A model generated the notes under the pieces. The model was not told the DNA's origin and ran no database searches. It was given only the letters and a program-made list of their open reading frames with translations. Below, piece after piece: positions 23,471 to 64,000 of a stretch of 64,000 bases of DNA (positions are counted from its first letter, which is position 1; the number at the start of each line of letters is the position of its first letter). The position numbers and the translations under genes are program-made. Source of the DNA: Candidatus Kaiserbacteria bacterium (GTDB lineage Bacteria > Patescibacteriota > Minisyncoccia > Phycocordibacterales > Phycocordibacteraceae); contig OY969413.1 in the NCBI GenBank assembly GCA_963699165.1, forward strand, positions 404,562-468,561. Reading direction: 5' to 3'.

Positions 23471-23475
23471 GCCCG

Positions 23476-23503: not shown

Positions 23504-23534
23504 GCGACGGACGTAATGCCGATAGAGCTCGCCA

Positions 23535-23583: not shown

Positions 23584-23625
23584 GCTTTTTCAAAATCTAG
23601 CTTTCGGCCGTGATACCATGTCGCC

Positions 23626-27276: not shown

Positions 27277-27281
27277 CTGCC

Positions 27282-29276
27282 ATGTTTGTCATTCGCCGAG
27301 AACCCCATAATCCAATCCTCACGCCGCGCCGCGAGCATTTGTGGGAATCGCTTTCCACTTTTAATCCGTCCGTGGTGCGCACCAAAGAAGGCGTGCGCCT
27401 GTACTATCGCGCCTTTGGAAATCAAAATGCGCTCCATACGCCGATTGAAGGCCTTTCGAGCATCGGCACCGCTTTTTCCGAAGACGGCGTGTTTTTTCAT
27501 TCGCGAAAACAAGTTGTCGCGCCGCAGGAATCGTGGGACGCGTTCGGATGCGAAGACCCGCGCGTCACCTTCTTCGAAGGCCGTTGGTACTGTTTTTACA
27601 CCGCGCTCGGCGGCTACCCGTTCGGTCCCGAAAACATCAAAGTCGCCCTTGCCATCGGCAACGAACCGGAAAATCTCACCGAGCGGCATCTCATAACGCC
27701 GTTTAATGCGAAAGCGGCGACATTGTTCCCCGAGCGCATCGATGGCGACATCGTGATGCTGCTTACAGCGCATACCGATTGGACGAGCGAACATCCGCGG
27801 CCGACGATTGCGCTCGCGCGGGCGAAACACATCGAGGACTTTTTCGATCCCGGCTTTTGGCAGGAGTGGCACGACCACCTTCCCGACCACGCGCTTTCGG
27901 AATTGCGCCGAAACGACGCCGACCATATCGAGGTGGGCGCATCGCCGCTTTTGACCGACAAAGGATGGCTGCTCGTCTATTCGTACATTCAAAATTATTA
28001 TGACGAGCATAAACGCACATTCTCGGTCGAAGCGGCGCTGCTTGATGAAAAAGATCCGAGAAAGCTCACTTCGCGCACCGAGTCGATGTTTGTGCCGGAA
28101 GAAATTTACGAAGAATACGGTCTCGTGCCGCACATCGTCTTCCCGACGAGCATTTCGCTCGACGAAAACGGAATGCTGGATATTTGGTATGGCGCAGCCG
28201 ACACCGTATGCGCGAAAGCCAGCGTGCGTCTCGCCGACCTATTGCGCTCGCTGAACCCGGAAAAACCCGCGCGCACGTTCATCCGGGCCGCGCAAAATCC
28301 GATTTTAGCTCCGCAAGGCAGCGGATTTGAAAGCCGCGACGTCTTTAATCCGGCAGCCGTTGACGTGGACGGCAAGGTGCACATTTTGTACCGGGCGATG
28401 GATGCGGCAAACACTTCGACCATCGGTCTGGCGATTTCGAAAGACGGGGTAACAATCGACGAACGTCTGCCGGAACCCGTGTACGTGCCGCGCGCCGACT
28501 TCGAGATGAAGCTCGGAAATCCGACCGGAAATTCCGGTTGCGAAGACCCGCGCATCGTCCGCATCGGCGATACGCTTTACATGACCTACACCGCTTACGA
28601 TGGCGTACATGCGCCTGCGGGAGCCGTTTCTTCGATTTCAGTTGACGATTTTCTCGCCCGCCGGTTTGAAAAATGGAGCAAGCCGTTTTTGATTACTCCC
28701 GAGGGCATCGATGATAAGGACCTTACGTTTTTCCCGGAAAAAATAAATGGGAATTTTCTGCTCTATCATCGCATAAGCAATCAGATTTGCGCCGACCCCT
28801 TCGCCGAGCTTGCTCCCGGCATTCGCGCTAAGCGCTGCATCGATGTGATGGGGCCTCGCCACGGCATGTGGGACGGTACGAAAGTCGGCAGCGCGGCGCC
28901 GCCGATTAAAGTCGGCGAAAACTGGCTTGTGATTTATCACGGCGTCTCGCGCCACGCGACCTACCGCCTCGGCGCCGCGCTGCTCGACCCGTCCGGCCTT
29001 TCGGTACTCGCGCGCACGGCCGATGCCATTTTTGAACCGCTAGAATCGTATGAAAAAGTTGGCGAGGTGCCGAATGTCGTCTTTGCATGCGGCGCCGTTG
29101 TCCGCGATGACACGCTCTTCCTCTACTACGGCGGCGCGGACAAAGTCATCGGTGTCGCGACGGGCTCGGTCGCGCACATTATCGATGCGCTTACGTCGTC
29201 CGGCAACCGAGATTCGGCAAGTTTGAGACCGTCGGAGCCGGTGCGGCAGGACTTTGCCGCGTTTGCGACACACTGA
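27282..29276 (+). CDS. Tandem-domain GH130 protein (two complete GH130 modules fused, 664 aa)
   Basis: Module 1 HNPILTP...FGCEDPRVTFFEGRWYCFYTA; module 2 QNPILAP...GNSGCEDPRIVRIGDTLYMTYTAYDG. True start ATG at 27282; the ORF-track start at 26871 is rejected because it overlaps the previous gene. Confidence 0.75.
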   Translation: MFVIRREPHNPILTPRREHLWESLSTFNPSVVRTKEGVRLYYRAFGNQNALHTPIEGLSSIGTAFSEDGVFFHSRKQVVAPQESWDAFGCEDPRVTFFEGRWYCFYTALGGYPFGPENIKVALAIGNEPENLTERHLITPFNAKAATLFPERIDGDIVMLLTAHTDWTSEHPRPTIALARAKHIEDFFDPGFWQEWHDHLPDHALSELRRNDADHIEVGASPLLTDKGWLLVYSYIQNYYDEHKRTFSVEAALLDEKDPRKLTSRTESMFVPEEIYEEYGLVPHIVFPTSISLDENGMLDIWYGAADTVCAKASVRLADLLRSLNPEKPARTFIRAAQNPILAPQGSGFESRDVFNPAAVDVDGKVHILYRAMDAANTSTIGLAISKDGVTIDERLPEPVYVPRADFEMKLGNPTGNSGCEDPRIVRIGDTLYMTYTAYDGVHAPAGAVSSISVDDFLARRFEKWSKPFLITPEGIDDKDLTFFPEKINGNFLLYHRISNQICADPFAELAPGIRAKRCIDVMGPRHGMWDGTKVGSAAPPIKVGENWLVIYHGVSRHATYRLGAALLDPSGLSVLARTADAIFEPLESYEKVGEVPNVVFACGAVVRDDTLFLYYGGADKVIGVATGSVAHIIDALTSSGNRDSASLRPSEPVRQDFAAFATH

Positions 29277-31582: not shown

Positions 31583-31600
31583 ATTTTGCACAGCAAAAAA

Positions 31601-32680
31601 TGCATAAGTTCAGATACATTTGGCAGTCCTCATAACCGAGGATATATGCGCATCAGAAGCAATTTCAGGGGTACGAAGGGCTGGTTGAGCATGTGGGAAA
31701 GGACGATACGATTGCGGCATATGCGGAAACCAAAGGAAGTCGACAGACGGGTGAAGATATTGGGATTCTGGGACATGCACGGGACGGAGGCCGCATACGA
31801 CGCCTTTGGCACCTCGGAGCGCACCTTGTATCGCTGGAAGGAGGAACTCAAAGCCCACGAGGGCCGCATTGATGCACTTGACCCGAAGAGCACTGCGCCG
31901 AAGGCGCGTCGAAGGAGGACTGTTCTGCCCGAGGTCGAGGATTTCATCATCCGCGAACGACAGGCGCATCCCCGGCTTGGGAAAGCAAAGCTTGCCGTTC
32001 TCCTGCGCGAAGAAGGGTACTCCGTGTCGGAGTCATACGTTGGGCGGGTCATTCTGGATTTGAAGAACCGCGGTCTGCTCCCGCAGCAGAGCCGGCTCTC
32101 GTTCCACGCACGTACGGGCAATCACACGGAAACACCGCAGAAACGCCGTACCAAGCTTCGCCGCACCGGCAAGCGCGGCATGGAGCTCGATACCGTCGTC
32201 CGCTTCATCGACGGCGTGAAGCGGTACGTCCTCACGGCAGTGGACGTGGAGCGGAAGTTCGCCTTTGCGGGCGCGTATACGAACCACTCGTCGAGAAGCG
32301 CGGACGACTTCCTTCGCCGAGTCATCGAGGTTTGCCCCTTCGATATCGACGAGTTGCAGACCGACAACGGGAGCGAGTTCGCCAAACACTTCGAGGATGC
32401 CTGTGCCGAACTCGGGCTCACGCACTTTCACACCCGCCCCCGCACTCCCAAGATGAATGCCCACGTCGAACGATTCAATCGCACCGTCTCCGAGGACTTC
32501 ATCATGCTGAATCGGGGCCTGCTGCGGGACGATATTCATTCCTTCAATCTGAAGCTTGTCGACTGGCTGATCTGGTACAACACCAAACGCCCGCACCAGT
32601 CGCTCGGCATGGTGTCCCCCTTGCGGTATATTGTGTGTACATTAACCGTCGGGGACTGCCAAAAGTACTGGACGCGTACA
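31601..32680 (+). mobile_element. IS481-like insertion sequence, copy 2 (1080 bp), 5-6-bp TSD AAAAA(A)
   Basis: Same ends as copy 1; flanked by aaaaaa on both sides. Confidence 0.85.
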
Positions 32681-32689
32681 AAAAATTGA
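31646..32689 (+). CDS. IS481-family DDE transposase, copy 2
   Basis: Identical protein to copy 1 apart from the flank-encoded tail (..YWTRT then KN*). The TGA stop at 32687-32689 lies outside the IS within TTGACT. Confidence 0.85.
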   Translation: MRIRSNFRGTKGWLSMWERTIRLRHMRKPKEVDRRVKILGFWDMHGTEAAYDAFGTSERTLYRWKEELKAHEGRIDALDPKSTAPKARRRRTVLPEVEDFIIRERQAHPRLGKAKLAVLLREEGYSVSESYVGRVILDLKNRGLLPQQSRLSFHARTGNHTETPQKRRTKLRRTGKRGMELDTVVRFIDGVKRYVLTAVDVERKFAFAGAYTNHSSRSADDFLRRVIEVCPFDIDELQTDNGSEFAKHFEDACAELGLTHFHTRPRTPKMNAHVERFNRTVSEDFIMLNRGLLRDDIHSFNLKLVDWLIWYNTKRPHQSLGMVSPLRYIVCTLTVGDCQKYWTRTKN

Positions 32690-36667: not shown

Positions 36668-37672
36668 TTAGAGTGTGCTTAATGCCTGGGATAAAATCTG
36701 CACCTGCGGAGCGGTTTGCGTGTTGAAAAATATGCAGCCCATAACGATGAGAAGCAAGAGCAACCCCCCGCCGATGACTTCCACGTATTGCACGCGCGCT
36801 TTTACGACAATCGCGACGATGAGCAAAACGGCAATGATGACGGCGAGCGCGGAAAGGATACAGGTTATCGTGAGCGTCGGCGACGTGATAACGAGTGTTA
36901 AGAAATTTTTCAGTCGCGATGAACTTTCGACCGGCATCTGAGCGGGTGCCTGCGCACCGAGAACTTTCACAACCGCTGCAGTCGTGGTCGCCTTCACCAC
37001 GACGGTTGTTGTAGCGACTTTCGTCGATGGCTTTTTCAAAGCGTTCGTAACGACAACGGACTTTTGCGCCTGCGCTTCCGGAAGGGCAAGTTCGGGCGTC
37101 CCGAAATATTGCACAACAAATGTCGTTTCTTGACCGTTGTAAACGCCGTTTGCAACGCCGATGCCGATTTGCGTATATTGCGGCTTTACGATATTTGCGT
37201 GATGCGACGGCGATGCCATCCATGCGCTTTCAACGGCCGACGAGTCGGTGAAGTTTACGGCAAGATTTTGGCCGGCATATCGATAGTCGTAACCGACCAA
37301 ACTCAGCCAATACCAGGGGTCTTTGCCGTCCGGACTCACATGAGAAAAATATCCCTTCGCCGCCATATCGTTCGCCGCGTCCTGCGCCGCCTGCGCAAGC
37401 AGCGCGTTATGGGTAAGCGGCGCATCCCCGTTTGCGATTCGATCGTCATTGGTGAGAATCGTAAGCGCCGCCGGAAGAACCGAGGCGAGAAAATCGGTAT
37501 CCGGCAGAACGAATTTGATTTGCGCGAGATAGACCCCTTGAATCGCGACGATTCCGGCGATGATGAGCGCAATCGACGCTGCGCGGAAAATGTGCGGTTT
37601 GTAGCCGTTTCGCTTGTGCGGGAGAAAATGGTCATGCACGCGATGCAGAAGCGGCTTTTTAGTCGAGGCCAT
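36668..37672 (-). CDS. CAP/SCP/PR-1 domain protein anchored by N- and C-terminal TM segments
   Basis: CAP signatures HVSPDGKDPWYWLSLVGYDYRYAGQNLAVNF and WMASPSHHANIV. N-terminal TM IALIIAGIVAI; C-terminal hydrophobic region ILSALAVIIAVLLIVAIVV. Confidence 0.65.
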   Translation of the reverse strand: MASTKKPLLHRVHDHFLPHKRNGYKPHIFRAASIALIIAGIVAIQGVYLAQIKFVLPDTDFLASVLPAALTILTNDDRIANGDAPLTHNALLAQAAQDAANDMAAKGYFSHVSPDGKDPWYWLSLVGYDYRYAGQNLAVNFTDSSAVESAWMASPSHHANIVKPQYTQIGIGVANGVYNGQETTFVVQYFGTPELALPEAQAQKSVVVTNALKKPSTKVATTTVVVKATTTAAVVKVLGAQAPAQMPVESSSRLKNFLTLVITSPTLTITCILSALAVIIAVLLIVAIVVKARVQYVEVIGGGLLLLLIVMGCIFFNTQTAPQVQILSQALSTL

Positions 37673-37680
37673 GTGTAAAT

Positions 37681-37740
37681 AATAATAAAACGAAAATATA
37701 AAAAAGGGAATCCCGCGGGCGGCTTTGCCGCCCGCGGGAT
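37681..37740 (-). terminator. Perfect 15-bp GC hairpin followed, on the minus strand, by a T-rich run (intrinsic terminator)
   Basis: aatcccgcgggcggc-TTTG-gccgcccgcgggatt; the minus strand continues cccTTTTTTATATTTTCGTTTT. Lies just upstream of the CAP gene start. Confidence 0.4.
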
Positions 37741-37985
37741 TTCTGGTATCCTGCCGATATGAAACGCGCATTTTCAATCGTTATCGTCGCACTGTTGGCG
37801 GTCGGCATGATTGCGATGTTCTTCCCGGCCCTTGCCTCGCTGACCAAATAGCACTTGTCCCCAGTCGGACTTGTGCAATCAACGGATTTCTGGCATACTG
37901 GAAATACTCGCAGAGTATTAGAGCTTCGCTCGGTCTTCGGACCGAAATGTTCAGTTTCGGCGAGATTAACCAGTAGTTGCAACTC

Positions 37986-40486: not shown

Positions 40487-41020
40487 ATGGGAAAGGGGCA
40501 AGCGACATCCGTGTCGCTCACCCCTTTCTAGCAACCGCGGCGACATGACGGCGGCATTGCGCCGTGCGGCGGTGTCGTGATCACCTCCCTTCGACTTCTG
40601 TTACCTGGGGTTACAAAAGCCGAAGAGAGGATGCAAGGTTGCCATGATGCCTCCTAGCGCGAGATGTGCAGATTGGCGACTAGTCTTTTGAATTCGAACG
40701 TTTGATACATTGAGCGAATGAAAAAACCTCCGGCGGTGCGCACTTCACAAGGTCCGAACGAGACGAAATACAGATACTGTTAGCGAAGGGATACTCTTTG
40801 CAAGATGTCGGAGATGCACTCGACCGACCGAAGAGTGTCATATGGTACGAGACGCAAAAGAAGAGGAAGGGACGGCCGTATGATGCTGCATATGCGCATC
40901 ACATTTCATACGTACGAAGGAAATACAGCCGAGCGGTCGGCAAGATGATTGCTCTCGACCCGAAGCTCCGGAAGTTCATCGAGGCGGGTATTCAGACTCT
41001 GTTGGCACAGCTCCCGTATC

Positions 41021-41824
41021 ATGGAAGCTATGTACACGCTCAAACAAATTCCGTCTGAAGTGCAGATTAGAAAGTTTTTGCGGCGAACGTTGTTCGGAAA
41101 GAATGTGTTTTGCCCGCTCTGCCGCTCGCGCAGGATTGTGCGGTACGAAGACCGGTACCGGTGTGTTGCCTGCCGCCGAAGGTTCTCGCTCCTCTCGCAT
41201 ACCTGGCTCTCAAACCTCAAGCTTCCGCTCCAGACGTGGTGGATGCTCCTCTGGTGCTGGACGATACGAGAACCCGTCTTGCAGGCCATGGAGCTCACGC
41301 ATTTGCCTGAACGAACGATACGCCGCTGGTATGCCACCTTTCGTGAGCATTTGCCCCAAGAAGAGCATATTCTCGAGCGTATCGTGCAGATGGACGAGGC
41401 ATATTTCAAGAACGCAGCTCTCGTGATGGCCAAGCAGAAAGGAACGAGAAAGCTTGCCTATACCGTCATGCACAATCGCTTCCCGAACAAGACGGACGTG
41501 ATGGACTTTCTCTTTGCCAAAGTGAAGCCGGGGAGCGAGTTGTGGACCGATGGCGGTTCGATATACCGGGGTGTCGGCAAGCGATGGCCGGTCTCCCACA
41601 GCAGAGACATTCATTCAAAATTCGAGTTCGAACATACCTCCGAAATCGAAGGCGTGTTCGGCGTATACCGCACCTTTGTGCGGAGGATGTATCATCATCA
41701 CTGGAGCGAGAACCTCGAGCAATACGTGAGGGAATTCTGCTTCAGATTTTCCTCACCGGAATTGTTCGGAAATCCGCGCACTTACTTATTAAAATCATTA
41801 ACGCTTGTGCCAACTCGTTCTTAA
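41021..41824 (+). CDS. IS1595-family (ISXO2-like) transposase with N-terminal zinc ribbon
   Basis: CPLCRSRRIVRYEDRYRCVACRRRF zinc ribbon, then a DDE_Tnp_IS1595-like core (QMDEAYF...LWTDGGSIYRGV...HSRD...HTSEIEGVFG). Confidence 0.7.
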   Translation: MEAMYTLKQIPSEVQIRKFLRRTLFGKNVFCPLCRSRRIVRYEDRYRCVACRRRFSLLSHTWLSNLKLPLQTWWMLLWCWTIREPVLQAMELTHLPERTIRRWYATFREHLPQEEHILERIVQMDEAYFKNAALVMAKQKGTRKLAYTVMHNRFPNKTDVMDFLFAKVKPGSELWTDGGSIYRGVGKRWPVSHSRDIHSKFEFEHTSEIEGVFGVYRTFVRRMYHHHWSENLEQYVREFCFRFSSPELFGNPRTYLLKSLTLVPTRS

Positions 41825-42629: not shown

Positions 42630-43673
42630 TCAATTCATTGTACGCGTCCAGTACTTTTGGCAGTCCCCGACGGTTAATGTACACACAATATACCGCAAGG
42701 GGGACACCATGCCGAGCGACTGGTGCGGGCGTTTGGTGTTGTACCAGATCAGCCAGTCGACAAGCTTCAGATTGAAGGAATGAATATCGTCCCGCAGCAG
42801 GCCCCGATTCAGCATGATGAAGTCCTCGGAGACGGTGCGATTGAATCGTTCGACGTGGGCATTCATCTTGGGAGTGCGGGGGCGGGTGTGAAAGTGCGTG
42901 AGCCCGAGTTCGGCACAGGCATCCTCGAAGTGTTTGGCGAACTCGCTCCCGTTGTCGGTCTGCAACTCGTCGATATCGAAGGGGCAAACCTCGATGACTC
43001 GGCGAAGGAAGTCGTCCGCGCTTCTCGACGAGTGGTTCGTATACGCGCCCGCAAAGGCGAACTTCCGCTCCACATCCACTGCCGTGAGGACGTACCGCTT
43101 CACGCCGTCGATGAAGCGGACGACGGTATCGAGCTCCATGCCGCGCTTGCCGGTGCGGCGAAGCTTGGTACGGCGTTTCTGCGGTGTTTCCGTGTGATTG
43201 CCCGTACGTGCGTGGAACGAGAGCCGGCTCTGCTGCGGGAGCAGACCGCGGTTCTTCAAATCCAGAATGACCCGCCCAACGTATGACTCCGACACGGAGT
43301 GCCCTTCTTCGCGCAGGAGAACGGCAAGCTTTGCTTTCCCAAGCCGGGGATGCGCCTGTCGTTCGCGGATGATGAAATCCTCGACCTCGGGCAGAACAGT
43401 CCTCCTTCGACGCGCCTTCGGCGCAGTGCTCTTCGGGTCAAGTGCATCAATGCGGCCCTCGTGGGCTTTGAGTTCCTCCTTCCAGCGATACAAGGTGCGC
43501 TCCGAGGTGCCAAAGGCGTCGTATGCGGCCTCCGTCCCGTGCATGTCCCAGAATCCCAATATCTTCACCCGTCTGTCGACTTCCTTTGGTTTCCGCATAT
43601 GCCGCAATCGTATCGTCCTTTCCCACATGCTCAACCAGCCCTTCGTACCCCTGAAATTGCTTCTGATGCGCAT
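42630..43673 (-). CDS. IS481-family DDE transposase, copy 3
   Basis: Same protein as copies 1 and 2; the stop codon TGA is supplied by the flank within TTGACA. Confidence 0.85.
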   Translation of the reverse strand: MRIRSNFRGTKGWLSMWERTIRLRHMRKPKEVDRRVKILGFWDMHGTEAAYDAFGTSERTLYRWKEELKAHEGRIDALDPKSTAPKARRRRTVLPEVEDFIIRERQAHPRLGKAKLAVLLREEGHSVSESYVGRVILDLKNRGLLPQQSRLSFHARTGNHTETPQKRRTKLRRTGKRGMELDTVVRFIDGVKRYVLTAVDVERKFAFAGAYTNHSSRSADDFLRRVIEVCPFDIDELQTDNGSEFAKHFEDACAELGLTHFHTRPRTPKMNAHVERFNRTVSEDFIMLNRGLLRDDIHSFNLKLVDWLIWYNTKRPHQSLGMVSPLRYIVCTLTVGDCQKYWTRTMN

Positions 43674-43718
43674 ATATCCTCGGTTATGAGGACTGCCAAA
43701 TGTATCTGAACTTATGCA
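42639..43718 (-). mobile_element. IS481-like insertion sequence, copy 3 (1080 bp), 5-bp TSD TTCAT
   Basis: ttcat at 42634-42638 and 43719-43723. One coding SNP (Y to H) relative to copies 1 and 2. Its left end lies about 30 nt upstream of the hisS start. Confidence 0.85.
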
Positions 43719-43753
43719 TTCATCCGGCGTGCAGGCTGTGATAAACTTTGAGA

Positions 43754-45022
43754 ATGTCCGAAATGCTTTCGACCGACCCCTATAAAGGCGTGCGCGATTT
43801 TTATCCGGCCGACTGGGCGGTCCTGCAGGCGCTTTTGGGAAGTGCGCGCGAGACGCTTTTGAAATGGGGATACGAAGAATACAATGCTTCCCCGCTTGAG
43901 CGCGCGGAGCTCTATGAAGCAAAGACGTCCGAAGAAATCGTAAACGAGCAGACCTATACATTCACCGACCGCGGCGACCGGCGCGTCACGCTCCGGCCCG
44001 AAATGACGCCGACCTTGGCGCGCATGGTTGCCGCAAAGCGCCGCGAGCTCGCCTTTCCTTTGCGCTGGTTTTCCATCGGCAACCGTTTCCGCTACGAGCG
44101 TCCCCAAAAAGGCCGCCTGCGGGAGTTTTATCAGGCAGACGTCGACTTGGTCGGCCTTCCCGAAGGCGAGGCGGATATCGAGATTGTTACGCTTGCCTCG
44201 CGCATTTTGCGCGACCTGGGTGCCGATGAAAGCGAGTTCTCGATACGATTAAATTCGCGCCCGCTTTTAAATGCGGCGTGCAAAGCCGCCGGTCTTGAGG
44301 ACGAGAAAGCCCGAACATATGTTCGCCTGCTGGATAAAAAATCGAAAATGACCGACGAAGAATTCGCTGCCGCATCGAGCGAGATTTCGGCAAAGGACCC
44401 GCTTTCGTTTATCGAGAACGCGGGCGAAGCGCCGGAAGTTTCCGAAGAGAAAAAGAAACTTCTCGACCGCATCGAGACGCTCAAAGCCCGCGGCGTGGCT
44501 AACGCCGTCTTTAATCCGGCCGTCACCCGGGGTTTCGATTATTACACCGGCATGGTATTCGAAATTTTCGATACGAATCCGGAAAACTCGCGTTCCATTT
44601 TCGGCGGCGGCCGCTACGACCGGCTCGTCGCGCTTTTTGGCGGCGATCCTATTCCGGCGGTCGGCTTTGCCATCGGCGATGTGACGCTTGCGGATTTTGC
44701 GCAAACACATGGGCTCGCTCAAAAGGCAGCGACGGACAAACCGCAGTTGTATCTCGGCACGCCGGGCGCAGGCGACATTCCCGCCGCACAGGCATTTGCC
44801 GACACGCTCCGCGCGCAAGGTTGCCGCATTTTTGTGAACCTCACCGAACGCGGACTCGGCGACCAAATAAAGGATGCAGTGAAGCACGGCATACCCTTCT
44901 TTGCCGCATACGGCGCGAATGAGGTCGAACGCGGCGCCCTACGGCTGAAAACGCTGGCAACCGGCAAGGAAAGCGAGCTTCCCGCCTCCGAAATTCCTTC
45001 GCGTCTTCGGATGGACAACTGA
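43754..45022 (+). CDS. hisS: Histidine--tRNA ligase
   Basis: Class II aaRS motifs (RLREFYQADVD...) and a C-terminal anticodon-binding domain. The ORF-track TTG start at 43748 is replaced by the ATG at 43754. Confidence 0.9.
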   Translation: MSEMLSTDPYKGVRDFYPADWAVLQALLGSARETLLKWGYEEYNASPLERAELYEAKTSEEIVNEQTYTFTDRGDRRVTLRPEMTPTLARMVAAKRRELAFPLRWFSIGNRFRYERPQKGRLREFYQADVDLVGLPEGEADIEIVTLASRILRDLGADESEFSIRLNSRPLLNAACKAAGLEDEKARTYVRLLDKKSKMTDEEFAAASSEISAKDPLSFIENAGEAPEVSEEKKKLLDRIETLKARGVANAVFNPAVTRGFDYYTGMVFEIFDTNPENSRSIFGGGRYDRLVALFGGDPIPAVGFAIGDVTLADFAQTHGLAQKAATDKPQLYLGTPGAGDIPAAQAFADTLRAQGCRIFVNLTERGLGDQIKDAVKHGIPFFAAYGANEVERGALRLKTLATGKESELPASEIPSRLRMDN

Positions 45023-56978: not shown

Positions 56979-59900
56979 CTACGCCTCCGGCTCCGGCGGC
57001 AGATTTAAGGGCTCGACATCGAGCGCAAGGCCGCGGATTTGGTTGGTAAGAACGGCAAACGATGCCGGCGTGCCGCTGTGGCTAATCGGCTCGTTTTTCA
57101 CGATGGCATCGAAGGCGGCGGAACGGCCCTGAATGTCGTCCGATTTAATCGTGAGCATTTCGCGAAGCGTGTACGCGGCGCCGTAGCCGAGGAGCGCCCA
57201 CACTTCCATTTCTCCGAAGCGCTGACCGCCGTTTTGCGCCTTGCCGCCAAGCGGCTGCTGCGTGATGAGCGAGTATGGACCAATTGAGCGCATGTGGATT
57301 TTGTCTTCCACCATGTGATGCAATTTGAGAACGTACATGTAGCCCACGGCAATGTCCTGCGCAAATGCGGCGCCGGTAAGACCGTCATAGAGTTTCATCT
57401 TCCCCGTTTCCGAAAAACCGGCTGCCGCGAGTTCTTTGCGAATTTCGTCCGGCGTTGCTCCGGCAAACGGCGGCACGACGGCCTGATAGCCGAGCGTGTT
57501 TGCCGCGAGCCCAAGGTGCATTTCGAGAATTTGGCCGAGGTTCATGCGCGACGGAACGCCGAGCGGCGTCAGAATAAGGTCAATCGGATTGCCGTCCTTG
57601 TCGTATGGCATATCCTCGACCGGAAGCACGCGGCTGATGACGCCTTTGTTGCCGTGTCGTCCCGCGAGTTTGTCGCCGACGGAGACGTTTCGCACCTGCG
57701 CAACCGTCACGACGATTTTCTTGATGATGCCTGTTTCAAGCTGGTCGCCCTTTTCGCGCGAGAAAACGCGCACGCCGATGACGCGGCCTCGCTTGCCGCC
57801 TTCCATGCGAAGCGATGTGTCCTTCACATCTTTTGCCTTATCGCCGAAGATACTGCGCAAGAGACGCTCTTCGGGCGTGAGCTGGGTCTCGCCTTTCGGC
57901 GTCACTTTTCCGACGAGAATGTCGCCAGGACGCACTTCCGCACCGATGCAAATGACGCCCTCTTCATCGAGATTCTTGAGGCGCATTTCACCGACGTTTG
58001 GAATGTCGTGCGTCGTCGTCTCGGGACCGAGCTTCGTGTCGCGCACGACGCATTCGAAGTCCTCGATATGCACGGTTGTAAATTTCGCGTCTTCGACGAG
58101 GCGCTCGGAAATGATGATGGCGTCTTCGTAGTTCGCGCCGTTCCAGCTCATGAATGCGACGCGCACATTTTGGCCGAGCGAAAGCTGGCCATGGTCGGTC
58201 GAAGAGTTGTCAGCGAGCACGTCGCCCTTCTTCACCTTGTCGCCGAGCACCACCGACGGGCGCTGCATAAAGGCGGAATTTTGGTTGGTTTGGGTCAGTC
58301 CCTGGAGGCGATATTCTTTCGCCTTGCCGTCCTTGTTTTTCACGATGACTTTTCGCGCATCGACATAAGAAACTTCGCCCGCTTCTTCGGCGAGCACGAG
58401 GCGTCCGGTGCTGCGGGCGGCATGCCCTTCGATGCCGGTCGCAACGAGCGGCGCTTCCGGAATCAACACCGGAGTTGCCTGCTTCTGCATGTTCGAACCC
58501 ATGAGCGCGCGGTTCGCATCGTCGTGGTCGACGAACGGAATCATCGATGTCGCGATTGAAAACATCTGGTAGGTCGATGCGTCCATCAAGGTCACCGTGT
58601 CGCGCGGCGCGATAATCGGGTCGCCCTTGTAGCGCGCTTCGACGAAATCGGGGACAATGCGGTTCTGCTCGTCGAGCTTGGTTGCGCCGTGCGCAATCGT
58701 CTCGAGTTCTTCGTCGAGGCCGTTCAGGTACACGATTTCGTCCGTGACTTTTCCGTTCTTCACGCGAACGTAGGGCGTTTCGATAACGCCGAAGTCGTTG
58801 GTGCGGGCGTGCGTCGCCATGTGGAGAATGAGGCCGATGTTTTGGCCTTCCGGCGTATGAATCGGACAGAGGCGTCCGTAATGCGACGGATGCACGTCGC
58901 GCACTTCGAAGCCCGCTCGCTCGCGCGTAAGGCCGCCCGGACCGAGCGCCGAAAAAGTGCGCATATTTTCGAGCTCGGAAAGAATGTTCTGCTGGTCCAT
59001 GAACTGCGAAAGTTGGTTTGCCGTAAAGAATTCGTGGACGGATGCATGGAACGGGCGCGGATTGACGAGCGCCATCGGAAGGGTCGTTTCGCTTTCAATC
59101 GTGGACATGCGGTCCTGAATGTTTCGCTTCATGCGGCTCATGCCGACGCGCATGCGCGCCTGAAGAAGTTCGCCGACGAAACGCACGCGGCGGAAGCCGA
59201 GATGATCGATGTCATCCGGTCGCGCCGACGGATCGGCGTTCAGTTTCGTGATTTCGGAGATGATGCGGACGAAGTCCGCGAGACCGAGCGTGTGCTTGTC
59301 GAGCGCCTTGCCGGTAAGCGGCAGACCGAAGCGCGAATTGAGGCGGTGGCGTCCGACCTTTCCGAGGTCGTAGCGTTCCGCAGAGAAAAGCGACTGTACG
59401 AAGTTCTTTGCGTTTTCCGGGGTAGCAAGGTCGCCGTCGCGCATGCGGCGGTGGATTTCAACGTAGGCCTCTTCAATCGACTTTGCTTCGTCGTGCTCAA
59501 GCGTCGCCTTAATCGCGGCGAGCGCGAGCGGGTCTTTTTCAAAATGCTTCAAAACGGCTTCGCCCAAACCGCCGCCGAAGACGGAGAGAATCTGCGTAAT
59601 CGGGAACTTGCGCTTGCGGTCGATTTTCATGTAGAGCGCGCCGTCCGCTTCGGAATCGATTTCAATCCAAACGCCGCGAAGCGGAATGATTTTCGCGCCG
59701 AAGTACGCCTTGCCGCGGATGAGTTCGGATACGAAGAAAGCGCCGAAGCTTCGTGCGAGCTGCGGTACGATTGCGCGTTCGACGCCGGAAACGATAAATG
59801 AGCCGTGCGGCGTCATAATCGGCATGTCGGTAAGGAAGATTTCCTGCGACTTCTCCGAGCCGAAAGTTTTATTGATGAGCTTCACCGTCGCCTTGACCGG

Positions 59901-60155
59901 CGCCTCGTAGGTGCGCATATTTTCGCGCGCAAAGTCCTCATCGTACTTCGGCTCCCCGATTTCAAAGCTTTCAAAACGAAGTTCGAACTTTTTCCCCGAG
60001 TAGTCCGTAATCGGCGAAAATTCCTTGAAGAGTTCGGCGAGGCCGTCTTTCAAAAGCCAATCAAATGAACCGCGCTGATGTCCGACAAGGTCCGGAAACG
60101 GGACCCGCGGCGCTCGAAACGCACCGAACGTCTTTTGAACGAGGTTTTTTTGCAT
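56979..60155 (-). CDS. rpoB: DNA-directed RNA polymerase subunit beta
   Basis: 1058 aa from the internal ATG (MQKNLVQKTFG...); conserved beta-subunit blocks; rpoB-rpoC gene order. Confidence 0.95.
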   Translation of the reverse strand: MQKNLVQKTFGAFRAPRVPFPDLVGHQRGSFDWLLKDGLAELFKEFSPITDYSGKKFELRFESFEIGEPKYDEDFARENMRTYEAPVKATVKLINKTFGSEKSQEIFLTDMPIMTPHGSFIVSGVERAIVPQLARSFGAFFVSELIRGKAYFGAKIIPLRGVWIEIDSEADGALYMKIDRKRKFPITQILSVFGGGLGEAVLKHFEKDPLALAAIKATLEHDEAKSIEEAYVEIHRRMRDGDLATPENAKNFVQSLFSAERYDLGKVGRHRLNSRFGLPLTGKALDKHTLGLADFVRIISEITKLNADPSARPDDIDHLGFRRVRFVGELLQARMRVGMSRMKRNIQDRMSTIESETTLPMALVNPRPFHASVHEFFTANQLSQFMDQQNILSELENMRTFSALGPGGLTRERAGFEVRDVHPSHYGRLCPIHTPEGQNIGLILHMATHARTNDFGVIETPYVRVKNGKVTDEIVYLNGLDEELETIAHGATKLDEQNRIVPDFVEARYKGDPIIAPRDTVTLMDASTYQMFSIATSMIPFVDHDDANRALMGSNMQKQATPVLIPEAPLVATGIEGHAARSTGRLVLAEEAGEVSYVDARKVIVKNKDGKAKEYRLQGLTQTNQNSAFMQRPSVVLGDKVKKGDVLADNSSTDHGQLSLGQNVRVAFMSWNGANYEDAIIISERLVEDAKFTTVHIEDFECVVRDTKLGPETTTHDIPNVGEMRLKNLDEEGVICIGAEVRPGDILVGKVTPKGETQLTPEERLLRSIFGDKAKDVKDTSLRMEGGKRGRVIGVRVFSREKGDQLETGIIKKIVVTVAQVRNVSVGDKLAGRHGNKGVISRVLPVEDMPYDKDGNPIDLILTPLGVPSRMNLGQILEMHLGLAANTLGYQAVVPPFAGATPDEIRKELAAAGFSETGKMKLYDGLTGAAFAQDIAVGYMYVLKLHHMVEDKIHMRSIGPYSLITQQPLGGKAQNGGQRFGEMEVWALLGYGAAYTLREMLTIKSDDIQGRSAAFDAIVKNEPISHSGTPASFAVLTNQIRGLALDVEPLNLPPEPEA

Positions 60156-60390: not shown

Positions 60391-61230
60391 TCAGAGGAGA
60401 AAGCGGAAAATCGAGAGGACTATGACAAGGATAATAGCAGCGATTCCTGTCGGAATTGCGATGCTCGAGACGATGGAAGGCGCGGGGGCTTTTGGCGCGG
60501 GTGCAGTCGCAAAAGAATTTAGCGCGGATGTTTTTGCAGGAGTCGGAATTGCCGGAACTACGGTTTGCAGAACGGTCGTAGTTGCCGTGGTAGTCGCGGA
60601 GCGGCCGGTGTTTGAAATCGACTTAATCGTTTGGGTGGGAGTTGGGAATGACGTCGATGTCGAAGGCGGCGACGAAGGATTTGGTTTGGTCAATGATGCC
60701 GGTGAGTTTACGGAAAGAGTTGAGACAATCGGAGAGATAGCGCCCGGACTTGCGGAGACAGTACTGGAAGAAGTCGAGCGCCACGTAGTGCGCACATCGC
60801 ACGTAGAACAATCAAAGTTGATGGCATAGCTGTTTGCGCCGGTAGCTTTGCCGTGGAACTTGCCCAAAGAGTCGATAGTGACGCCGAGAAAAGAGACGAA
60901 TCCCGCTTGCGAATCCCATGCGAAACCGGAGAGGTTGCCGTGGCTGTCATTCATCACGCCGCTTCCAGTCGGGGAAAGGTTAATCCATCCGTCGTTAGCG
61001 CTCCATGCGTAACCGGTGACAGCAGAGTCGGTGACGGAGATGTTTCCGTTTTGTGCGGCAAAGTTAACCCATCCTGCCACGCTTCCCCATGCGTATTTGT
61101 GTGCGGGGTCGATTGTGCCGGAAGAAGCGTCAGCGAAAGAAACGCCGGTGAAAAGAAACAGAGTGAGGACTGCTCCGCGCACGAATACATGCGCGAGCTT
61201 ATTTCTTCGATTTGGTGCTTGTTGCTGCAT
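60391..61230 (-). CDS. Secreted/surface protein with aromatic GW-type repeats (cell-wall-binding-repeat-like), Ser/Thr/Pro linker and C-terminal TM anchor
   Basis: Signal peptide; repeats GWVNFAAQNG, GYAWSANDGWINL, GFAWDSQAGFVSF; STP-rich spacer; C-terminal GIAAIILVIVLSIF. Confidence 0.5.
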   Translation of the reverse strand: MQQQAPNRRNKLAHVFVRGAVLTLFLFTGVSFADASSGTIDPAHKYAWGSVAGWVNFAAQNGNISVTDSAVTGYAWSANDGWINLSPTGSGVMNDSHGNLSGFAWDSQAGFVSFLGVTIDSLGKFHGKATGANSYAINFDCSTCDVRTTWRSTSSSTVSASPGAISPIVSTLSVNSPASLTKPNPSSPPSTSTSFPTPTQTIKSISNTGRSATTTATTTVLQTVVPAIPTPAKTSALNSFATAPAPKAPAPSIVSSIAIPTGIAAIILVIVLSIFRFLL

Positions 61231-61657
61231 TGGTTGAAGTGGCCGTTGCCGGTGGAACAGACTGCGAAACAGTTTGGGTTGCCGCTCCATCATTCACCGG
61301 ACCGACATTGATGAGTTTGTCGGTTGAAGGGCGGTACAGGAGCGCTTCGGGAGGGTTTTGATAGACGATGAGGATATCGCCGTTCTCGGCATTTACGAGG
61401 AAGGGTTGGCCTCGCTTCGCGCTTCCCGCATCTTTGATGGTTGCCATGGTTGGCGTCTCGTTTGGTAGTTGAATGAGTTTGCCGACATTTGCGAGTATTT
61501 GGGCTGCTTGTTCAGCTCCGGAAAGTTCGGGGTGTGTGCGGTACACGGTATATCGGCCGAGCCAGAAGGAAGCTCCAAGAGCAAGAATGACGGCAATCCA
61601 GAACGCAGATCGACGGGCAAAGCGCAATATGGAGTTGGTTCGGAGTTTGACATCCAT
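61199..61657 (-). CDS. N-terminally anchored hypothetical protein (152 aa)
   Basis: TM AFWIAVILALGASFWLG, then a soluble domain and an Ala/Thr/Ser tail. Confidence 0.4.
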   Translation of the reverse strand: MDVKLRTNSILRFARRSAFWIAVILALGASFWLGRYTVYRTHPELSGAEQAAQILANVGKLIQLPNETPTMATIKDAGSAKRGQPFLVNAENGDILIVYQNPPEALLYRPSTDKLINVGPVNDGAATQTVSQSVPPATATSTNAATSTKSKK

Positions 61658-61663
61658 AGCGGG

Positions 61664-64000
61664 CTAGTTTGCGGTGGAAGAATCCATCGCATCGGTGCTT
61701 GAAGCGTCAGGCGTAGTCGGTTCGGAAGTGGAAGCATCGGTCAAAGAAGATCCGGAACCCGCGGCCGCTGGCGCGGCCGCGCTACCGCTTCCACCGCCTC
61801 CGCTTCCCTGCCCCGCATTTTGCAAAAGCTGTTGCAGCTGACTTCCGGTAACGCAGGTTCCATCAACGCAGAGCTTTTGTGTATTTTCTTGTTGCGAATT
61901 TACCGTCGTCGCATTCAACACCGCCGTCGTGATTGATTGCGAAAATGCATTCACCTGCGTCGCGAGCGCCTGCACCGCCTTCACAAGCGGCGCGATGAGA
62001 CCGACGTAGTTGACCGTGAGCGTACCATCGGGCGTGAGAGAGGTCGGCGAAGTGGTTGAAACGAGTTCGGGGAAGATTTGCTGAACCTGTTGCGCGACGA
62101 AGCCGAGGTTGGTTCCGGAATCGCTCTGGTCGAGACGGGTGTATGAGACAGGCACAAGTCCTTCGATTGCAGAAAGAGAGGAAGAAGCATCGAGCAACGT
62201 GATGTTGGTTTTCAACCGCTGGTCTGACGACTGGAAGATAGAACCGCTATATGTGGCGTTGCCATTATCACGAACCGAGAAGACAGTTGTGGAAGCACTG
62301 TTCACCACGGCAAAAGCTGTGGTCGAGGCGGTGTCTGGACCCCACACGGTGAGGAGAGAATACGGAGAGGTTGTGCCGATGCCGATGTTGCCTTTGAGTA
62401 TTGATTGCCAAGCACTGGACCATTTAGTCCCGCTCGTGCTTATGCCGGAGGTGTTGTAGTAGAGGGTAGAGCCAGTTGAACCGTCGTAGCGGAGAAACTG
62501 CGAGGCATTGGGAGCAGAAAACGTCGGTGCTCCAACGCCCGAGTAGAAACCAGGGGCTGTACCGGATTGAATTGCCGTCGAATTACTGCCGAGGCCAGTA
62601 ATGGCGTAGCCGATGACTATTTCGTTCGAGTCGCTCGAGGCCAAAGCCTTGGTGCTAGCGCCTTCATATACTGAGTACGACGACGCCTGGTTGGCTGTTG
62701 AACCATCCGCAATATAATCGCCGGCATTGTAGCCATTGGCGGTATTGCCGATGCCTGTTGTATTGCCGCCAAGCGCACCTTGCCCGTCGGCAGTATTACC
62801 ACTGCCAGTAGAGTTAGCGTACAGAGCGCTTTGACCGTTAGCTACGTTGAACGCGCCAGACGACACATTGTAGAGGGCATTGTACCCAATCGCCGTATTG
62901 TTGCCGCCTGAAGTAAGAAGGTGGAGCGCGTCAAACCCAACAGCAGTATTGCCAGCACCGGTCGTGTTTGTGGAGAGTGCGTTTGCGCCCACTGCCGTAT
63001 TTCCATTCCCGGATGTGTTAGAAACGAGAGCACTAAACCCAAATGCCGAGTTGCCTGATCCCGTGCTTCCTGTCCCCGAGCGGTTTGCCAAAAGTGCACC
63101 ATACCCTACAGCGGTGTCGAGTGTACTCAACTGTGGTCCGAAAAGCAGCGTCGGTGATGACGCTAATTGCGCATTGTTTTGCGCATACTCAGAAACGGCG
63201 TATCCGTAGTTTGCTATCTCAAAGGCTGTAGCGATGTACGAATAGCCATTATTGTCAGGGTGGGTATTGTCTGAATACAGGCATGTATCCGCGTAGGATA
63301 GCGAGAGCACACACGTTTGCAAGACGTTGGCAGTAGGTGCTACGGCGTAGCCATACTGCATAGCAACTTGGTCAATTGTCACATTGAATAGATATTGCAT
63401 TACGGGGTCTTGTGATGCGTTGTCCATCGGAAGCTCGCCCAGGACGACATTCTTGCTGCCGACGATAGCAGCGAACGCTGACGCAACCGTAATAAGATTC
63501 GCCCGGAAGGTCGCGACATTTATTTGCGAGTCATTCGCACTGGCGCCGGCATCGTTATTACCAATCATCAGATGGACTCTCATCCCTGGAGCAAGAGTCG
63601 TGGCGTCGCTCATATATCGCTTTATTAGCGATCCAGTTGAGGAACTTGACTGATTGCAAGGCGAACCAGCAGTCGTCGTGTACTCAAGGCATGTGCCTGA
63701 AACGGCCTCGTTGACTTCCGCCGCAGAATCGTGAATGGATACTAGGTCGGAGAAACACGTCCCCGAGGGAGAAGCGGAGGTTCGTGAACAGGACGTTGCT
63801 CCGATACCTGCCGTTGCAGAGTCGCCATCGAACCAATCATCTCCCGAAGGCGTCGGGAGCGAGTAGGAACCAAGTCCCCCATTCGCAGGAGGAAGAACAC
63901 CCGTCACTTCAGACGTGAGATCGACGAGCGAGGCGGTGAGAGCTCCGGCAGTCGCATGGAGTATGCCCGTGAAGGAAGAACCTATGTTTGTAAGACCGGA
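61664..64000 (-). CDS. Phage-tail-fibre/tailspike-like protein: SGNH-like region, Gly-rich beta-helix repeats, C-terminal peptidase-S74 intramolecular-chaperone domain; 5' end beyond the window
   Basis: C-terminal SDQRLKTNITLLD...LVPVSYTRLDQSDSGTNLGFVAQQVQQIFPELV...VNYVGLIAPLVKAVQAL matches the S74 chaperone consensus. Repeats GNTAVGxxAL. The reading frame stays open to position 64000. Confidence 0.65.
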   Translation of the reverse strand, partial: SGLTNIGSSFTGILHATAGALTASLVDLTSEVTGVLPPANGGLGSYSLPTPSGDDWFDGDSATAGIGATSCSRTSASPSGTCFSDLVSIHDSAAEVNEAVSGTCLEYTTTAGSPCNQSSSSTGSLIKRYMSDATTLAPGMRVHLMIGNNDAGASANDSQINVATFRANLITVASAFAAIVGSKNVVLGELPMDNASQDPVMQYLFNVTIDQVAMQYGYAVAPTANVLQTCVLSLSYADTCLYSDNTHPDNNGYSYIATAFEIANYGYAVSEYAQNNAQLASSPTLLFGPQLSTLDTAVGYGALLANRSGTGSTGSGNSAFGFSALVSNTSGNGNTAVGANALSTNTTGAGNTAVGFDALHLLTSGGNNTAIGYNALYNVSSGAFNVANGQSALYANSTGSGNTADGQGALGGNTTGIGNTANGYNAGDYIADGSTANQASSYSVYEGASTKALASSDSNEIVIGYAITGLGSNSTAIQSGTAPGFYSGVGAPTFSAPNASQFLRYDGSTGSTLYYNTSGISTSGTKWSSAWQSILKGNIGIGTTSPYSLLTVWGPDTASTTAFAVVNSASTTVFSVRDNGNATYSGSIFQSSDQRLKTNITLLDASSSLSAIEGLVPVSYTRLDQSDSGTNLGFVAQQVQQIFPELVSTTSPTSLTPDGTLTVNYVGLIAPLVKAVQALATQVNAFSQSITTAVLNATTVNSQQENTQKLCVDGTCVTGSQLQQLLQNAGQGSGGGGSGSAAAPAAAGSGSSLTDASTSEPTTPDASSTDAMDSSTAN

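Follow-up and report, generated by a model that had tools for sequence, protein, structure and literature searches.

Proteins of the Peptidase_S74 family act in a set order, in which they trimerise and then cleave themselves. This trimerise-then-self-cleave mechanism has been described for MrfA/MYRF (PMC3828593). MYRF is a eukaryotic, membrane-bound transcription factor, and the structure of its ICA domain has been solved (7dc3). The endosialidase tail spikes (3gw6) carry a C-terminal S74 domain that follows a beta-helical shaft, displays a Ser-Lys dyad within an SDxRxK motif, and has a long helix after the beta part. Other phage fibre or spike proteins carry SGNH esterase domains. In Bacteroidota and other groups, proteins labelled “Tail fiber domain-containing” or “trimeric autotransporter adhesin” combine Gly/Asn repeats with a C-terminal S74 domain; some of these carry T9SS sorting (PF18962) or other repeats (PF26696), and we know of no partner genes for them. 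Surface proteins may also be subject to contingency-type switching. For example, the opa genes of Neisseria contain CTCTT repeats in the region coding for the leader peptide, and homopolymers in promoter spacers are contingency loci as well. Most CPR/Patescibacteria cannot be cultured, and to our knowledge little is understood of how they select and bind the bacteria that serve as their hosts.

The locus described here belongs to a Minisyncoccia (CPR) bacterium and lies at the end of the 64,000-nucleotide stretch of DNA that was analysed (the window). Specifically, the 3′-terminal 2,337 nt of a fibre gene occupy positions 61664–64000 of the minus strand and encode residues 124–901 of the partial protein P0001, together with the stop codon. 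No in-frame stop occurs between 63907 and 64000, so the open reading frame runs off the window; a GTG at 63907 was considered as the start and dismissed, as the frame stays open up to 64000. The complete protein comprises approximately 905 aa, and the 5′ end of its gene is located about 390 nt past the end of the window. The fibre sequence in the window is identical to that in three further loci (L001, L002, and L003) and to P0121, a 955-aa call on a 993-kb contig. Indeed, all available assemblies of the gene are 100% identical and thus represent one strain. Three of the contigs that carry it reach at most 567 nt beyond the window end, and two of these three break 10 nt before a (CT) tract that is discussed below. 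The exact 5′-UTR pattern of the gene had no match among the genome contigs searched. NCBI labels the protein [quoted passage not shown], and its matches in PHROG include phrog_1980 (tail fibre; E 1.5e-20), phrog_5668 (E 1.3e-17), phrog_4636 (tail spike), and phrog_23837 (virion structural protein), pointing to homology with phage tail-fibre families. A search for homologues returned 3,324 matches at E ≤1e-3, and the named ones among the best 120 were mostly from Bacteroidota. We give somewhat better than an even chance to the reading that the gene encodes a secreted, trimeric CPR surface fibre of ~905 aa and stands at the head of a conserved surface cassette of three genes, which is encoded by the cell.

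The S74 domain, which the original prediction had placed at the C-terminus as a self-cleaving chaperone, is borne out by profile and motif. It spans residues 715–825 (positions 61895–62227, minus strand), and Pfam profile PF13884 matches residues 561–616 of a 747-aa reading, or positions 62060–62227 of the window, with 53.3 bits (cut-off 22; E 3.5e-14). The catalytic dyad is intact within an SDQRLK motif, in which Ser715 lies at 62225–62227 and Lys720 at 62210–62212. All 26 relatives of the cassette type share both residues without exception, as do at least 90% of the rows in a 30-sequence set. The AlphaFold2 (AF2) model of the full-length fibre has a mean pLDDT of 52 and is poor outside the repeats and the S74 region, and in the latter pLDDT ranges from 70 to 87. 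Foldseek matches this region best to the MYRF ICA domain (7dc3; E 6e-5, TM 0.66 on the target) and to the endosialidase chaperone (3gw6), so that the predicted fold resembles solved chaperone domains. MYRF is therefore the best structural match, and in both cases a phage domain would have been recruited by a cellular genome; however, sequence similarity to MYRF is marginal (E 0.31, albeit the sole match in a PDB sequence search), and the surrounding domains are unrelated.

Immediately before the cleavage site lies a conserved CPR-type pre-cleavage module (IGIGTTSPYSLLTVWG...SGSIFQ; residues 651–714, positions 62228–62419, minus strand). Residues 640–901 as a whole are 70% identical to a Kaiserbacteria fibre (L012) and 48–57% identical to other CPR fibres. 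The S74 domain is followed by a C-terminal extension (61667–61885, minus strand) consisting of a conserved Cys motif, KLCVDGTCVTGSQLQQLL (61832–61885, minus strand), and a low-complexity tail of G, S, A, T, P, and D; of the 26 fibres compared, at least 90% have G837 and C839. The endosialidase tail spikes share the C-terminal S74 domain behind a beta-helical shaft, the Ser-Lys dyad, and the long helix, whereas the CPR fibre has some 75 residues after the chaperone, is encoded by a cell, possesses a Sec signal peptide, and is accompanied by two conserved, non-viral partner genes. A Bact_surface_Ig-like domain is found in 5 of 26 fibre relatives and, where it has been mapped (L012, L013, and L014), lies after the S74 domain at the C-terminal end. 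Folded Ig-like domains in this position would be unusual if the released piece were simply discarded. A YadA-type trimeric autotransporter adhesin was also considered and set aside; the C-terminus consists of S74 plus the low-complexity tail, and no match to YadA_anchor or Hep_Hag, that is, to an anchor or head HMM, was obtained in Pfam at E values up to 1.

Further upstream, the fibre contains a phage-like central module (residues ~157–650; 62420–63901, minus strand) consisting of an SGNH esterase, a repeat shaft, and a small terminal knob. The SGNH/GDSL hydrolase domain (63242–63826, minus strand) matches PF13472 (Lipase_GDSL_2) marginally, at 32.1–32.6 bits, just under the cut-off of 32.9. 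Its catalytic blocks are intact: block I, G182-D183-S184, with the nucleophile Ser184 at 63818–63820; block III, G270-x-N272-D273, at 63551–63562; and block V, D367-x-x-H370, at 63260–63271, with H370 at 63260–63262. In an alignment of a 20-member SGNH subfamily, G182, D183, G270, and D273 are invariant, and S184, N272, and H370 are conserved in at least 90%. As regards a flavodoxin-like alpha/beta fold, Foldseek recovers SGNH esterases only weakly with this region (E 0.03–0.5), where AF2 confidence is low. The SGNH-like features suspected earlier are present, and the segment MIGNNDAGA on which that suspicion was based is block III (GxND). The glycine-rich fibre repeats suspected at the same time are likewise real. 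These Gly/Asn-rich units of 17 residues (GNTAVGxxALxxNTTGx; 62570–63127, minus strand) are predicted to form a beta-helix or beta-roll shaft. The evidence for it comprises the PHROG matches given above and the AF2 model, which places short strands at residues 441, 458, 475, 492, 509, 526, and 543, i.e., every 17 residues, with pLDDT values of 74–96.

The relatives of the central module include phage-type proteins. Two complete proteins of 535–635 aa from portal-bearing phage contigs, P0145 and P0003, are 52–55% identical to the fibre in the SGNH part and 42–43% identical in the shaft-knob part, share with it the catalytic blocks and four cysteines, and, unlike the CPR fibre, end at the knob and lack S74. 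On contigs of 30–51 kb, only a few kb separate the gene for P0145 from a portal gene of the P22/SU10 type; the GC content of these contigs is 62–63% versus approximately 54% at the fibre locus. These SGNH relatives emerged from an exhaustive search; when the N-terminal half was used in a word-indexed search, all matches were to low-complexity sequence at the N-terminus. In the L012 locus, tblastn at E 1e-5 finds no counterpart of the SGNH module. The central module is preceded by the end of a CPR-type N-terminal module (residues 124–156; 63902–64000, minus strand), and the rest of that module, the signal peptide, and a (CT)7 tract are outside the window. The N-terminal region matches other proteins of Paceibacterota/Minisyncoccota, the mature N-terminus across the fibre family reads PGxTLxPxCxPxDxxC, and this N-terminal module is absent from the Bacteroidota-type proteins that share the repeats and the C-terminal S74 domain. 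By sequence comparison, the fibre is a mosaic in which an SGNH-shaft-knob module shared with phages is set between CPR-type N- and C-terminal modules.

The cassette consists of the S74 fibre gene, a gene for a membrane protein of ~150 aa, and a gene for an envelope-anchored, beta-domain protein of ~265 aa. In the window, the second gene (152 aa; 61199–61657, minus strand) begins 6 nt past the fibre stop codon and encodes a hydrophobic N-terminal anchor, a conserved domain of ~100 aa, and a low-complexity tail; its product has no match in Pfam, NCBIfam, or PHROG. The third gene (60391–61182, minus strand; 263 aa according to the NCBI call) encodes a signal peptide and a conserved all-beta domain that contains a CxxC pair and GYAWS/GWINF repeats (60778–61122, minus strand); a disordered S/T/P linker then leads to a transmembrane helix at the C-terminus (60397–60450, minus strand). 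AF2 models the beta domain at a pLDDT of ~97 (residues 21–135) and places a helix at residues 245–262. An earlier proposal that this protein carries wall-binding repeats of the GW type was not supported: the G-W repeats (GWVNF, GWINL) are real and form a distinct beta domain, but there is no Pfam GW match and no structural match in the PDB (best E 0.28), hence no sign of an SH3-like fold. NCBIfam yielded no matches for any of the three cassette proteins. Homologues of the third gene number 188, and the named ones are nearly all from Minisyncoccota, Paceibacterota, or Pacebacteria, with one labelled Acidobacteriaceae; in some family members the transmembrane helix is replaced by PG_binding_1 or a dockerin. 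The second and third genes are conserved partners of the fibre with membrane- or wall-anchoring ends.

A gene order of fibre, small membrane protein, and a third protein that ends in PG_binding_1 in some relatives recalls a phage layout, namely the tail-fibre/holin/endolysin end of a decayed prophage late operon. We regard this explanation as scarcely credible. The third protein has no match to a lytic-enzyme family in Pfam, NCBIfam, or PHROG, and its C-terminus is an anchor that sits behind a long S/T/P stalk. Its family has no relatives in IMG/VR and its fold no match in BFVD, on which grounds the gene was rejected as a phage gene; searches of viral collections did not recover the second protein either. 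Furthermore, genomes carry the cassette more than once, unaccompanied by other phage genes.

Comparative work places the fibre within a recurring arrangement. The order of fibre, homologue of the 152-aa protein, and homologue of the 263-aa protein recurs in L012, L020 (from the same MAG), and L021, and a variant order occurs in L013, L014, and L022. The L020 cassette is a second copy in the same genome, situated between murein-synthesis and ribosomal genes. Of 67 informative metagenome loci, 36 have a homologue of the second gene on the upstream side of the third-gene domain and within 700 nt of it, and so do L012, L020, L021, and L022. In 33 metagenome loci, 2.5 kb or more of sequence is available upstream of the third gene; an S74 domain lies there on the same strand in 18 of them, and all 14 loci that keep the pair of second and third genes have one. 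On the evidence of these gene neighbourhoods, the three-gene cassette is conserved across Minisyncoccota genomes. The downstream neighbour in the window is rpoB (56979–60155, minus strand; Pfam RNA_pol_Rpb2 domains), to which the cassette is not linked in relatives.

The original prediction had offered two origins for the fibre, a domesticated phage protein or the edge of a prophage lying beyond position 64000, and had noted an otherwise cellular context with no other phage genes. That context was upheld within the window. A Pfam scan of 30 of the larger open reading frames across the 64 kb returned named matches exclusively to cellular or IS genes, with no phage structural, packaging, or conjugation gene among them, and no recombinase homologue was found in the window. 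(Two 828-aa open reading frames of the window, considered as possible paralogues, are unrelated, and one of them is gyrA.) Domestication fits best, given the conserved cassette, the second copy, and the lack of viral kin of the third gene.

The alternative is that the fibre gene belongs to an integrated mobile element, either a prophage or a recombinase/conjugation-type island, as cargo at its margin; the gene would then serve that element, whose other genes would lie beyond 64000. This explanation draws on several relatives, and we consider it unlikely. In L012, two large serine recombinases lie 2–5 kb upstream of the fibre. In L013, an insert of ~11 kb between rplE and rpsN contains the fibre and the third gene together with a large serine recombinase and two further genes, one RepO-like and one MerR-like; no convincing att-like direct repeats were found around this island. 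A TrwB-like coupling protein and Replic_Relax adjoin the cassette in L014 and L022; a serine recombinase and a primase-like gene accompany them in L014, and an S26 peptidase in L022. In L020, L021, and L023, the DNA immediately upstream of the fibre contains tRNA genes, and the closest relatives of the SGNH module include the proteins from phage-like contigs. These four loci (L012, L013, L014, and L022) are the relatives on islands of the recombinase or conjugation type, however, and most relatives lie elsewhere. The copies in L020, L021, and L008 have only housekeeping neighbours, a recombinase match occurs in only 1 of 80 metagenome loci and is weak, and a coupling-protein or relaxase match occurs in none of the 80. 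Likewise, the whole fibre protein has no close relatives in IMG/VR. The domesticated, cellular reading is preferred because of the cellular window, the housekeeping neighbours of those three copies, the absence of the third-gene family from IMG/VR, and the near-absence of recombinases from the metagenome loci.

The neighbours in L014 and L022 also raise the idea of a mating adhesin, i.e., a fibre with which an integrative conjugative or mobilisable element binds its recipients and so keeps mating pairs stable, the chromosomal copies being remnants. Receptor-binding modules shared with phages would suit the recognition of a recipient surface. With conjugation genes near only 2 of more than 25 cassettes examined, none among the open reading frames scanned in the 64 kb, and no mating-pore genes seen, this idea strikes us as quite improbable.

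The 5′ end of the fibre gene, outside the window, contains a feature reminiscent of contingency loci. The DNA that encodes the signal peptide contains a (CT)7 tract, which lies ~350 nt outside the window and precedes the mature N-terminus by 86 nt. With seven repeats, every ATG is out of frame with the fibre open reading frame, the ATGs being distributed over the two other frames. Tracts of (CT)6 or (CT)9 would bring the fibre in frame with the ATG at 176, 182, or 188, and (CT)5 or (CT)8 with the ATG at 198; (CT)7, which is present in all available assemblies, is the one length class without an in-frame ATG. The gene thus appears, as judged from its reading frames, to have a contingency-type tract in its 5′ coding region whose length sets the reading frame. 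As in Neisseria opa, a pyrimidine repeat within the signal-peptide coding region sets the frame; the CPR tract differs in that its unit is a dinucleotide and ATGs are available in two frames, with the result that two of the three length classes would be ON.

The fibre gene may, however, be silent or decaying in this strain. Indeed, it could be a frameshifted, non-functional remnant in which (CT)7 is a fixed lesion and not a switch, an explanation that we hold to be distinctly unlikely. No available copy has an ATG in frame, and the only in-frame canonical starts are two TTGs ~60 codons upstream, from either of which reading crosses a 21-bp hairpin. None of eight hypothetical in-frame (ON) fibre proteins was found in a collection of 15 billion proteins, and no length polymorphism of the tract exists among the available copies, which are all identical and derive from one strain. 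Set against a remnant are more than 900 open codons with all catalytic residues intact, the recurrence of the same CATGCG-(CT)n layout in a different genome (L021), and a strong concentration of simple repeats at the 5′ ends of the fibre family, where 8 of the 14 long simple repeats in 926 kb fall in ~1% of the sequence. In L021 the tract is (CT)8, ATGs are present in both alternative frames, and the main frame has no canonical start codon from the upstream stop to the tract. A 31-nt palindrome upstream of the fibre was also considered as a dispersed repeat and is absent from the window.

A second kind of tract is seen in another fibre relative. The sole difference between two assemblies of its locus (L054 and L055) is G9 versus G10 between TTGCTA and TACAAT, in the -35/-10 spacer, and in this respect the relative resembles promoter-spacer homopolymer loci. 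An error in sequencing or assembling the homopolymer could account for the difference. The fibre gene itself is probably phase-variable through slippage of the (CT)n tract. Searches of the literature found no account of S74 fibres or of simple-repeat phase variation in CPR.

We infer that the fibre is best read as a domesticated, probably phase-variable, self-cleaving, trimeric adhesin-esterase, and as such it is a candidate means of adhering to other cells. Following Sec export, the S74 domain would nucleate trimerisation of the shaft and then cut itself off at Ser715, releasing the last 187 residues. The mature fibre would be held on the cell by its conserved N-terminal module; the anchor would probably be the beta domain of the third gene product on its long S/T/P stalk, perhaps together with the product of the second gene. 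The SGNH domain may bind and de-O-acetylate a surface glycan on another cell, in the manner of phage esterase tail spikes, and binding and deacetylation of this kind could lead to adhesion to a host or partner bacterium. Expression would probably be switched by (CT)n slippage in the signal-peptide coding region. It is tempting, if still tentative, to go further and suggest that Minisyncoccota (CPR) bacteria have their own dedicated, phase-variable fibre apparatus, made up of the S74-chaperoned trimer and its two envelope-anchored partners, built from phage tail-fibre parts and exchanging receptor-binding and enzymatic modules with phages, with which episymbionts recognise and hold their hosts.

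For the biology of the CPR, the cassette provides concrete genes to consider: a phage-like fibre that would process itself and whose enzymatic tips would be exchangeable, two envelope partners specific to the CPR, and candidate simple-repeat switches at the 5′ ends of the fibre genes. The fibre would be a further case, alongside MYRF, of cells recruiting the phage S74 chaperone. If the repeat tracts do vary in length, they would constitute an on/off contingency switch in CPR, none of which was found reported in the literature searches. Finally, matching the central module to phage fibres may offer a way to predict the host range of these bacteria.

The stop codon of the minus-strand fibre gene lies at 61664-61666, and its frame meets no further stop up to window position 64000; the gene is therefore truncated by the window. 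A GTG at 63907 was rejected as its start, being merely the first start-type codon met by the ORF lister in a frame that stays open beyond it. The portion within the window corresponds, with coordinates verified, to residues 124-901 of the partial protein P0001, whose numbering is used here. DNA identical to the fibre gene was found on three public contigs, one from an NCBI MAG (L001; GCA_049279115.1) and two from Logan (L002 and L003), and a 955-aa call of the gene (P0121) lies on a contig of 993,452 nt. The NCBI product name, 'tail fiber domain-containing protein, partial [Minisyncoccia bacterium]', places the fibre-bearing organism in the Candidate Phyla Radiation (CPR).

The fibre carries the self-cleaving S74 chaperone domain that the original prediction had read from its C-terminus, as a PF13884 search returned a Peptidase_S74 match (E 3.5e-14; 53 bits, cut-off 22). 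The Ser715 and Lys720 dyad of its SDQRLK motif is invariant in 26/26 related fibres, and in structural comparison the AF2 model comes closest to the MyRF ICA domain (7dc3; E 6e-5, TM 0.66) and to the endosialidase chaperone 3gw6. Upstream, the proposed Gly-rich repeats proved to be Gly/Asn repeats with a 17-residue period, which form the best-modelled part of the fibre (pLDDT 74-96), and PHROG tail-fibre and tail-spike families match both these repeats and S74. The SGNH HMM fell just below its cut-off (32.6 versus 32.9 bits). MIGNNDAGA, suggested earlier as an SGNH-like feature, is block III in the alignment of an SGNH subfamily with only 23 relatives among 1.84 billion representative proteins searched exhaustively. 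This alignment shows no variation at G182-D183 (block I) or at G270 and D273 (block III), while S184, N272, His370-Pro371 of block V and four cysteines are kept in at least 90% of members.

All 26 fibres examined possess S74, but their middle parts differ, and include Ig-like, Gly_rich_2, GDSL, pectate-lyase-like, Big_4 and collagen regions. Downstream of S74 (window 61667-61885) are a conserved Cys motif and then a low-complexity tail, and in the three relatives whose Ig-like domain was mapped (L012, L013 and L014) it follows S74 at the C-terminal end. Sequence continuing past the chaperone would be unusual if that fragment is discarded, as is thought.

The modules of the fibre differ in their affinities. 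Over its last 260 residues it shares 70% identity with a Kaiserbacteria fibre and 48-57% with other CPR fibres, and the N-terminal module, with the mature N-terminus motif PGxTLxPxCxPxDxxC, is also CPR-typical. The central module resembles complete proteins of 535-635 aa that stop at the knob and lack S74, with 52-55% identity in the SGNH part and 42-43% in the shaft and knob. The gene for one such protein, P0145, has a P22/SU10-type portal gene within a few kb, on contigs of 30-51 kb with a GC content of 62-63%. By these comparisons, the fibre is a CPR fibre scaffold bearing an insert of phage-type esterase, shaft and knob.

The fibre gene is followed, after 6 nt, by a second gene (61199-61657, minus strand; 152 aa, with an N-terminal hydrophobic anchor) and, after another 16 nt, by a third (60391-61182, minus strand). 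The 263-aa product of the latter comprises a signal peptide and an all-beta domain (pLDDT ~97 in its AF2 model), which a disordered S/T/P linker connects to a transmembrane helix at the C-terminus. Its 188 homologues are, where named, almost all from Minisyncoccota/Paceibacterota, with one labelled Acidobacteriaceae, and in none of them does the conserved domain have a Pfam family. Some homologues have PG_binding_1 or a dockerin in place of the transmembrane helix, and this range of endings argues for a putative envelope-anchoring role. The GW-type wall-binding repeats once proposed for this protein were not upheld, because its domain lacks a Pfam family, matches nothing significantly in the PDB or among predicted viral structures, and is without relatives in IMG/VR.

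The same gene order is found in a Kaiserbacteria locus (L012), elsewhere in the same MAG (L020) and in another Minisyncoccota genome (L021). The complete second cassette of the MAG (L020 3362-8783; products of 1351, 164 and 260 aa) lies between PBP/Mur ligase genes and YqeY/RmuC/L21, and that of L021 between the tyrosyl- and tryptophanyl-tRNA synthetase genes. The third gene was used to fetch 80 metagenome loci, 33 of which extend at least 2.5 kb upstream; an S74 domain is encoded upstream on the same strand in 18 of these 33, including all 14 in which the gene-two/gene-three pair is kept.

Four relatives reside on islands. In a Paceibacterota genome (L013 7500-18500), rplE and rpsN of the ribosomal protein operon are separated by an insert of ~11 kb, in which the fibre and third genes are accompanied by a large serine recombinase and by RepO-like and MerR-like genes; a search around it revealed no convincing att repeats. 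Two serine recombinases are encoded upstream of the L012 fibre, and L014 and L022 have a TrwB-like coupling protein and Replic_Relax around the cassette, with an additional primase-like gene and serine recombinase in L014. A tRNA gene directly precedes the fibre in L020 (tRNA-Glu), L021 and L023. By contrast, only one of the 80 metagenome loci gave a recombinase match, a weak one, and none matched a coupling protein or relaxase. The cassette is thus chromosomal in most cases and mobile in some, and the copy in the window may be either. L014 is contig NZ_JYMT01000011.1, labelled Bradyrhizobium sp. LTSP885, an alphaproteobacterial isolate (GC 52-58% in this stretch), and amid its mobility genes stand a third-gene homologue and a CPR-type fibre with S74, Ig-like and GDSL domains and a C-terminal module 57% identical. 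Either cross-phylum transfer or contamination could account for this.

Within the window, a Pfam scan of 30 larger ORFs named the cellular genes rpoB, rpoC, dnaG, rpoD, bacA, gyrA, infB and rpsA, an AddA-like helicase-nuclease, DsbA, LexA, a PIF1 helicase and two GH130 genes, the remaining named matches being IS transposases. Not one phage structural gene was among them, as the original prediction had it, and no serine recombinase was found in the window. The 64 kb contain an rve-family IS transposase gene three times (22382-23593, minus; 31586-32689, plus; 42630-43961, minus) and a transposase gene of IS1595 type (40949-41824, plus), unusually many for a small CPR genome. An 828-aa ORF (19300-21786, minus) has no Pfam match and shows no relationship to gyrA, which is just as long (12406-14892). 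The GH130 pair, of mannoside phosphorylase type (25001-26158 and 26871-29276), and a CAP-domain secreted protein (36668-37777) suggest glycan scavenging.

Just past the window end, a (CT)n tract is a probable switch. Immediately before the start codons of the fibre, L002 has a 21-bp perfect hairpin (150-194; ATACCTCGCGCATCGAAGCGG-CAA-...) that overlaps a GAGG motif in a region with a folding z-score of -7.6 and does not recur in the window. Next come three ATGs that share a frame, a fourth that is in a different one, and then (CT)7 (L002 206-222, about 346-359 nt past the window end) inside the signal-peptide coding region, with the signal-peptide core ...LVPLALISLFILSPLAAQA downstream in the third frame. 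With (CT)6 or (CT)9 the first three ATGs would be in frame with the fibre ORF, and with (CT)5 or (CT)8 the fourth, leaving (CT)7 as the sole tract-length class with no in-frame ATG. No in-frame variant of the gene is on record, and all copies represent one strain. The different genome L021 has (CT)8 in its signal-peptide coding region (3731-3746) in the same CATGCG-(CT)n layout; ATGs occupy both other frames, the main frame lacks a canonical start codon from the upstream stop to the tract, and (CT)8 is likewise the class without an in-frame ATG. The L020 paralogue has merely (CT)4, and its ATG is in frame.

Long simple repeats number 14 in the 926 kb of fetched sequence, and eight of them fall between -320 and +60 nt relative to fibre N-termini, a zone of ~1% of that sequence. 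The metagenome contigs L054 and L055 show 100% identity across 320 nt apart from a G tract, G9 (3625-3633) in the former and G10 (3624-3633) in the latter, which lies between TTGCTA and TACAAT and ~30 nt upstream of the ATG of a fibre gene. This looks like a promoter-spacer switch, and the difference could also be a homopolymer sequencing or assembly artefact. G8 or C8 tracts and a (TC)10 tract, in or beside third-gene-domain genes or upstream of a fibre gene (L075 7385; L086 4482, equivalent to L088 1318; L069 3359; L096 326), may be more switches.

S74-terminated, fibre-like proteins of bacterial genomes are already known under generic annotations. Our literature search found no description of a CPR-specific three-gene cassette, of a phage-type esterase insert in a CPR fibre or of simple repeats concentrated at the 5' ends of fibre genes, and all three appear to be undescribed; one CPR paper reports a gene with hypervariable 9-mer repeats, which is a different phenomenon.

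Domain composition, intact catalytic residues, mosaic origin, conserved partner genes bearing anchoring ends, and the way in which tract length sets the reading frame are established, and a mechanism may be proposed beyond them. The fibre would be exported via Sec, and S74 would drive trimerisation and self-cleavage at Ser715, in the manner of its family (PMC3828593). The N-terminal module and partner proteins would keep the fibre on the cell, where it may bind and de-O-acetylate a glycan on another cell, with strand slippage turning its expression on or off.
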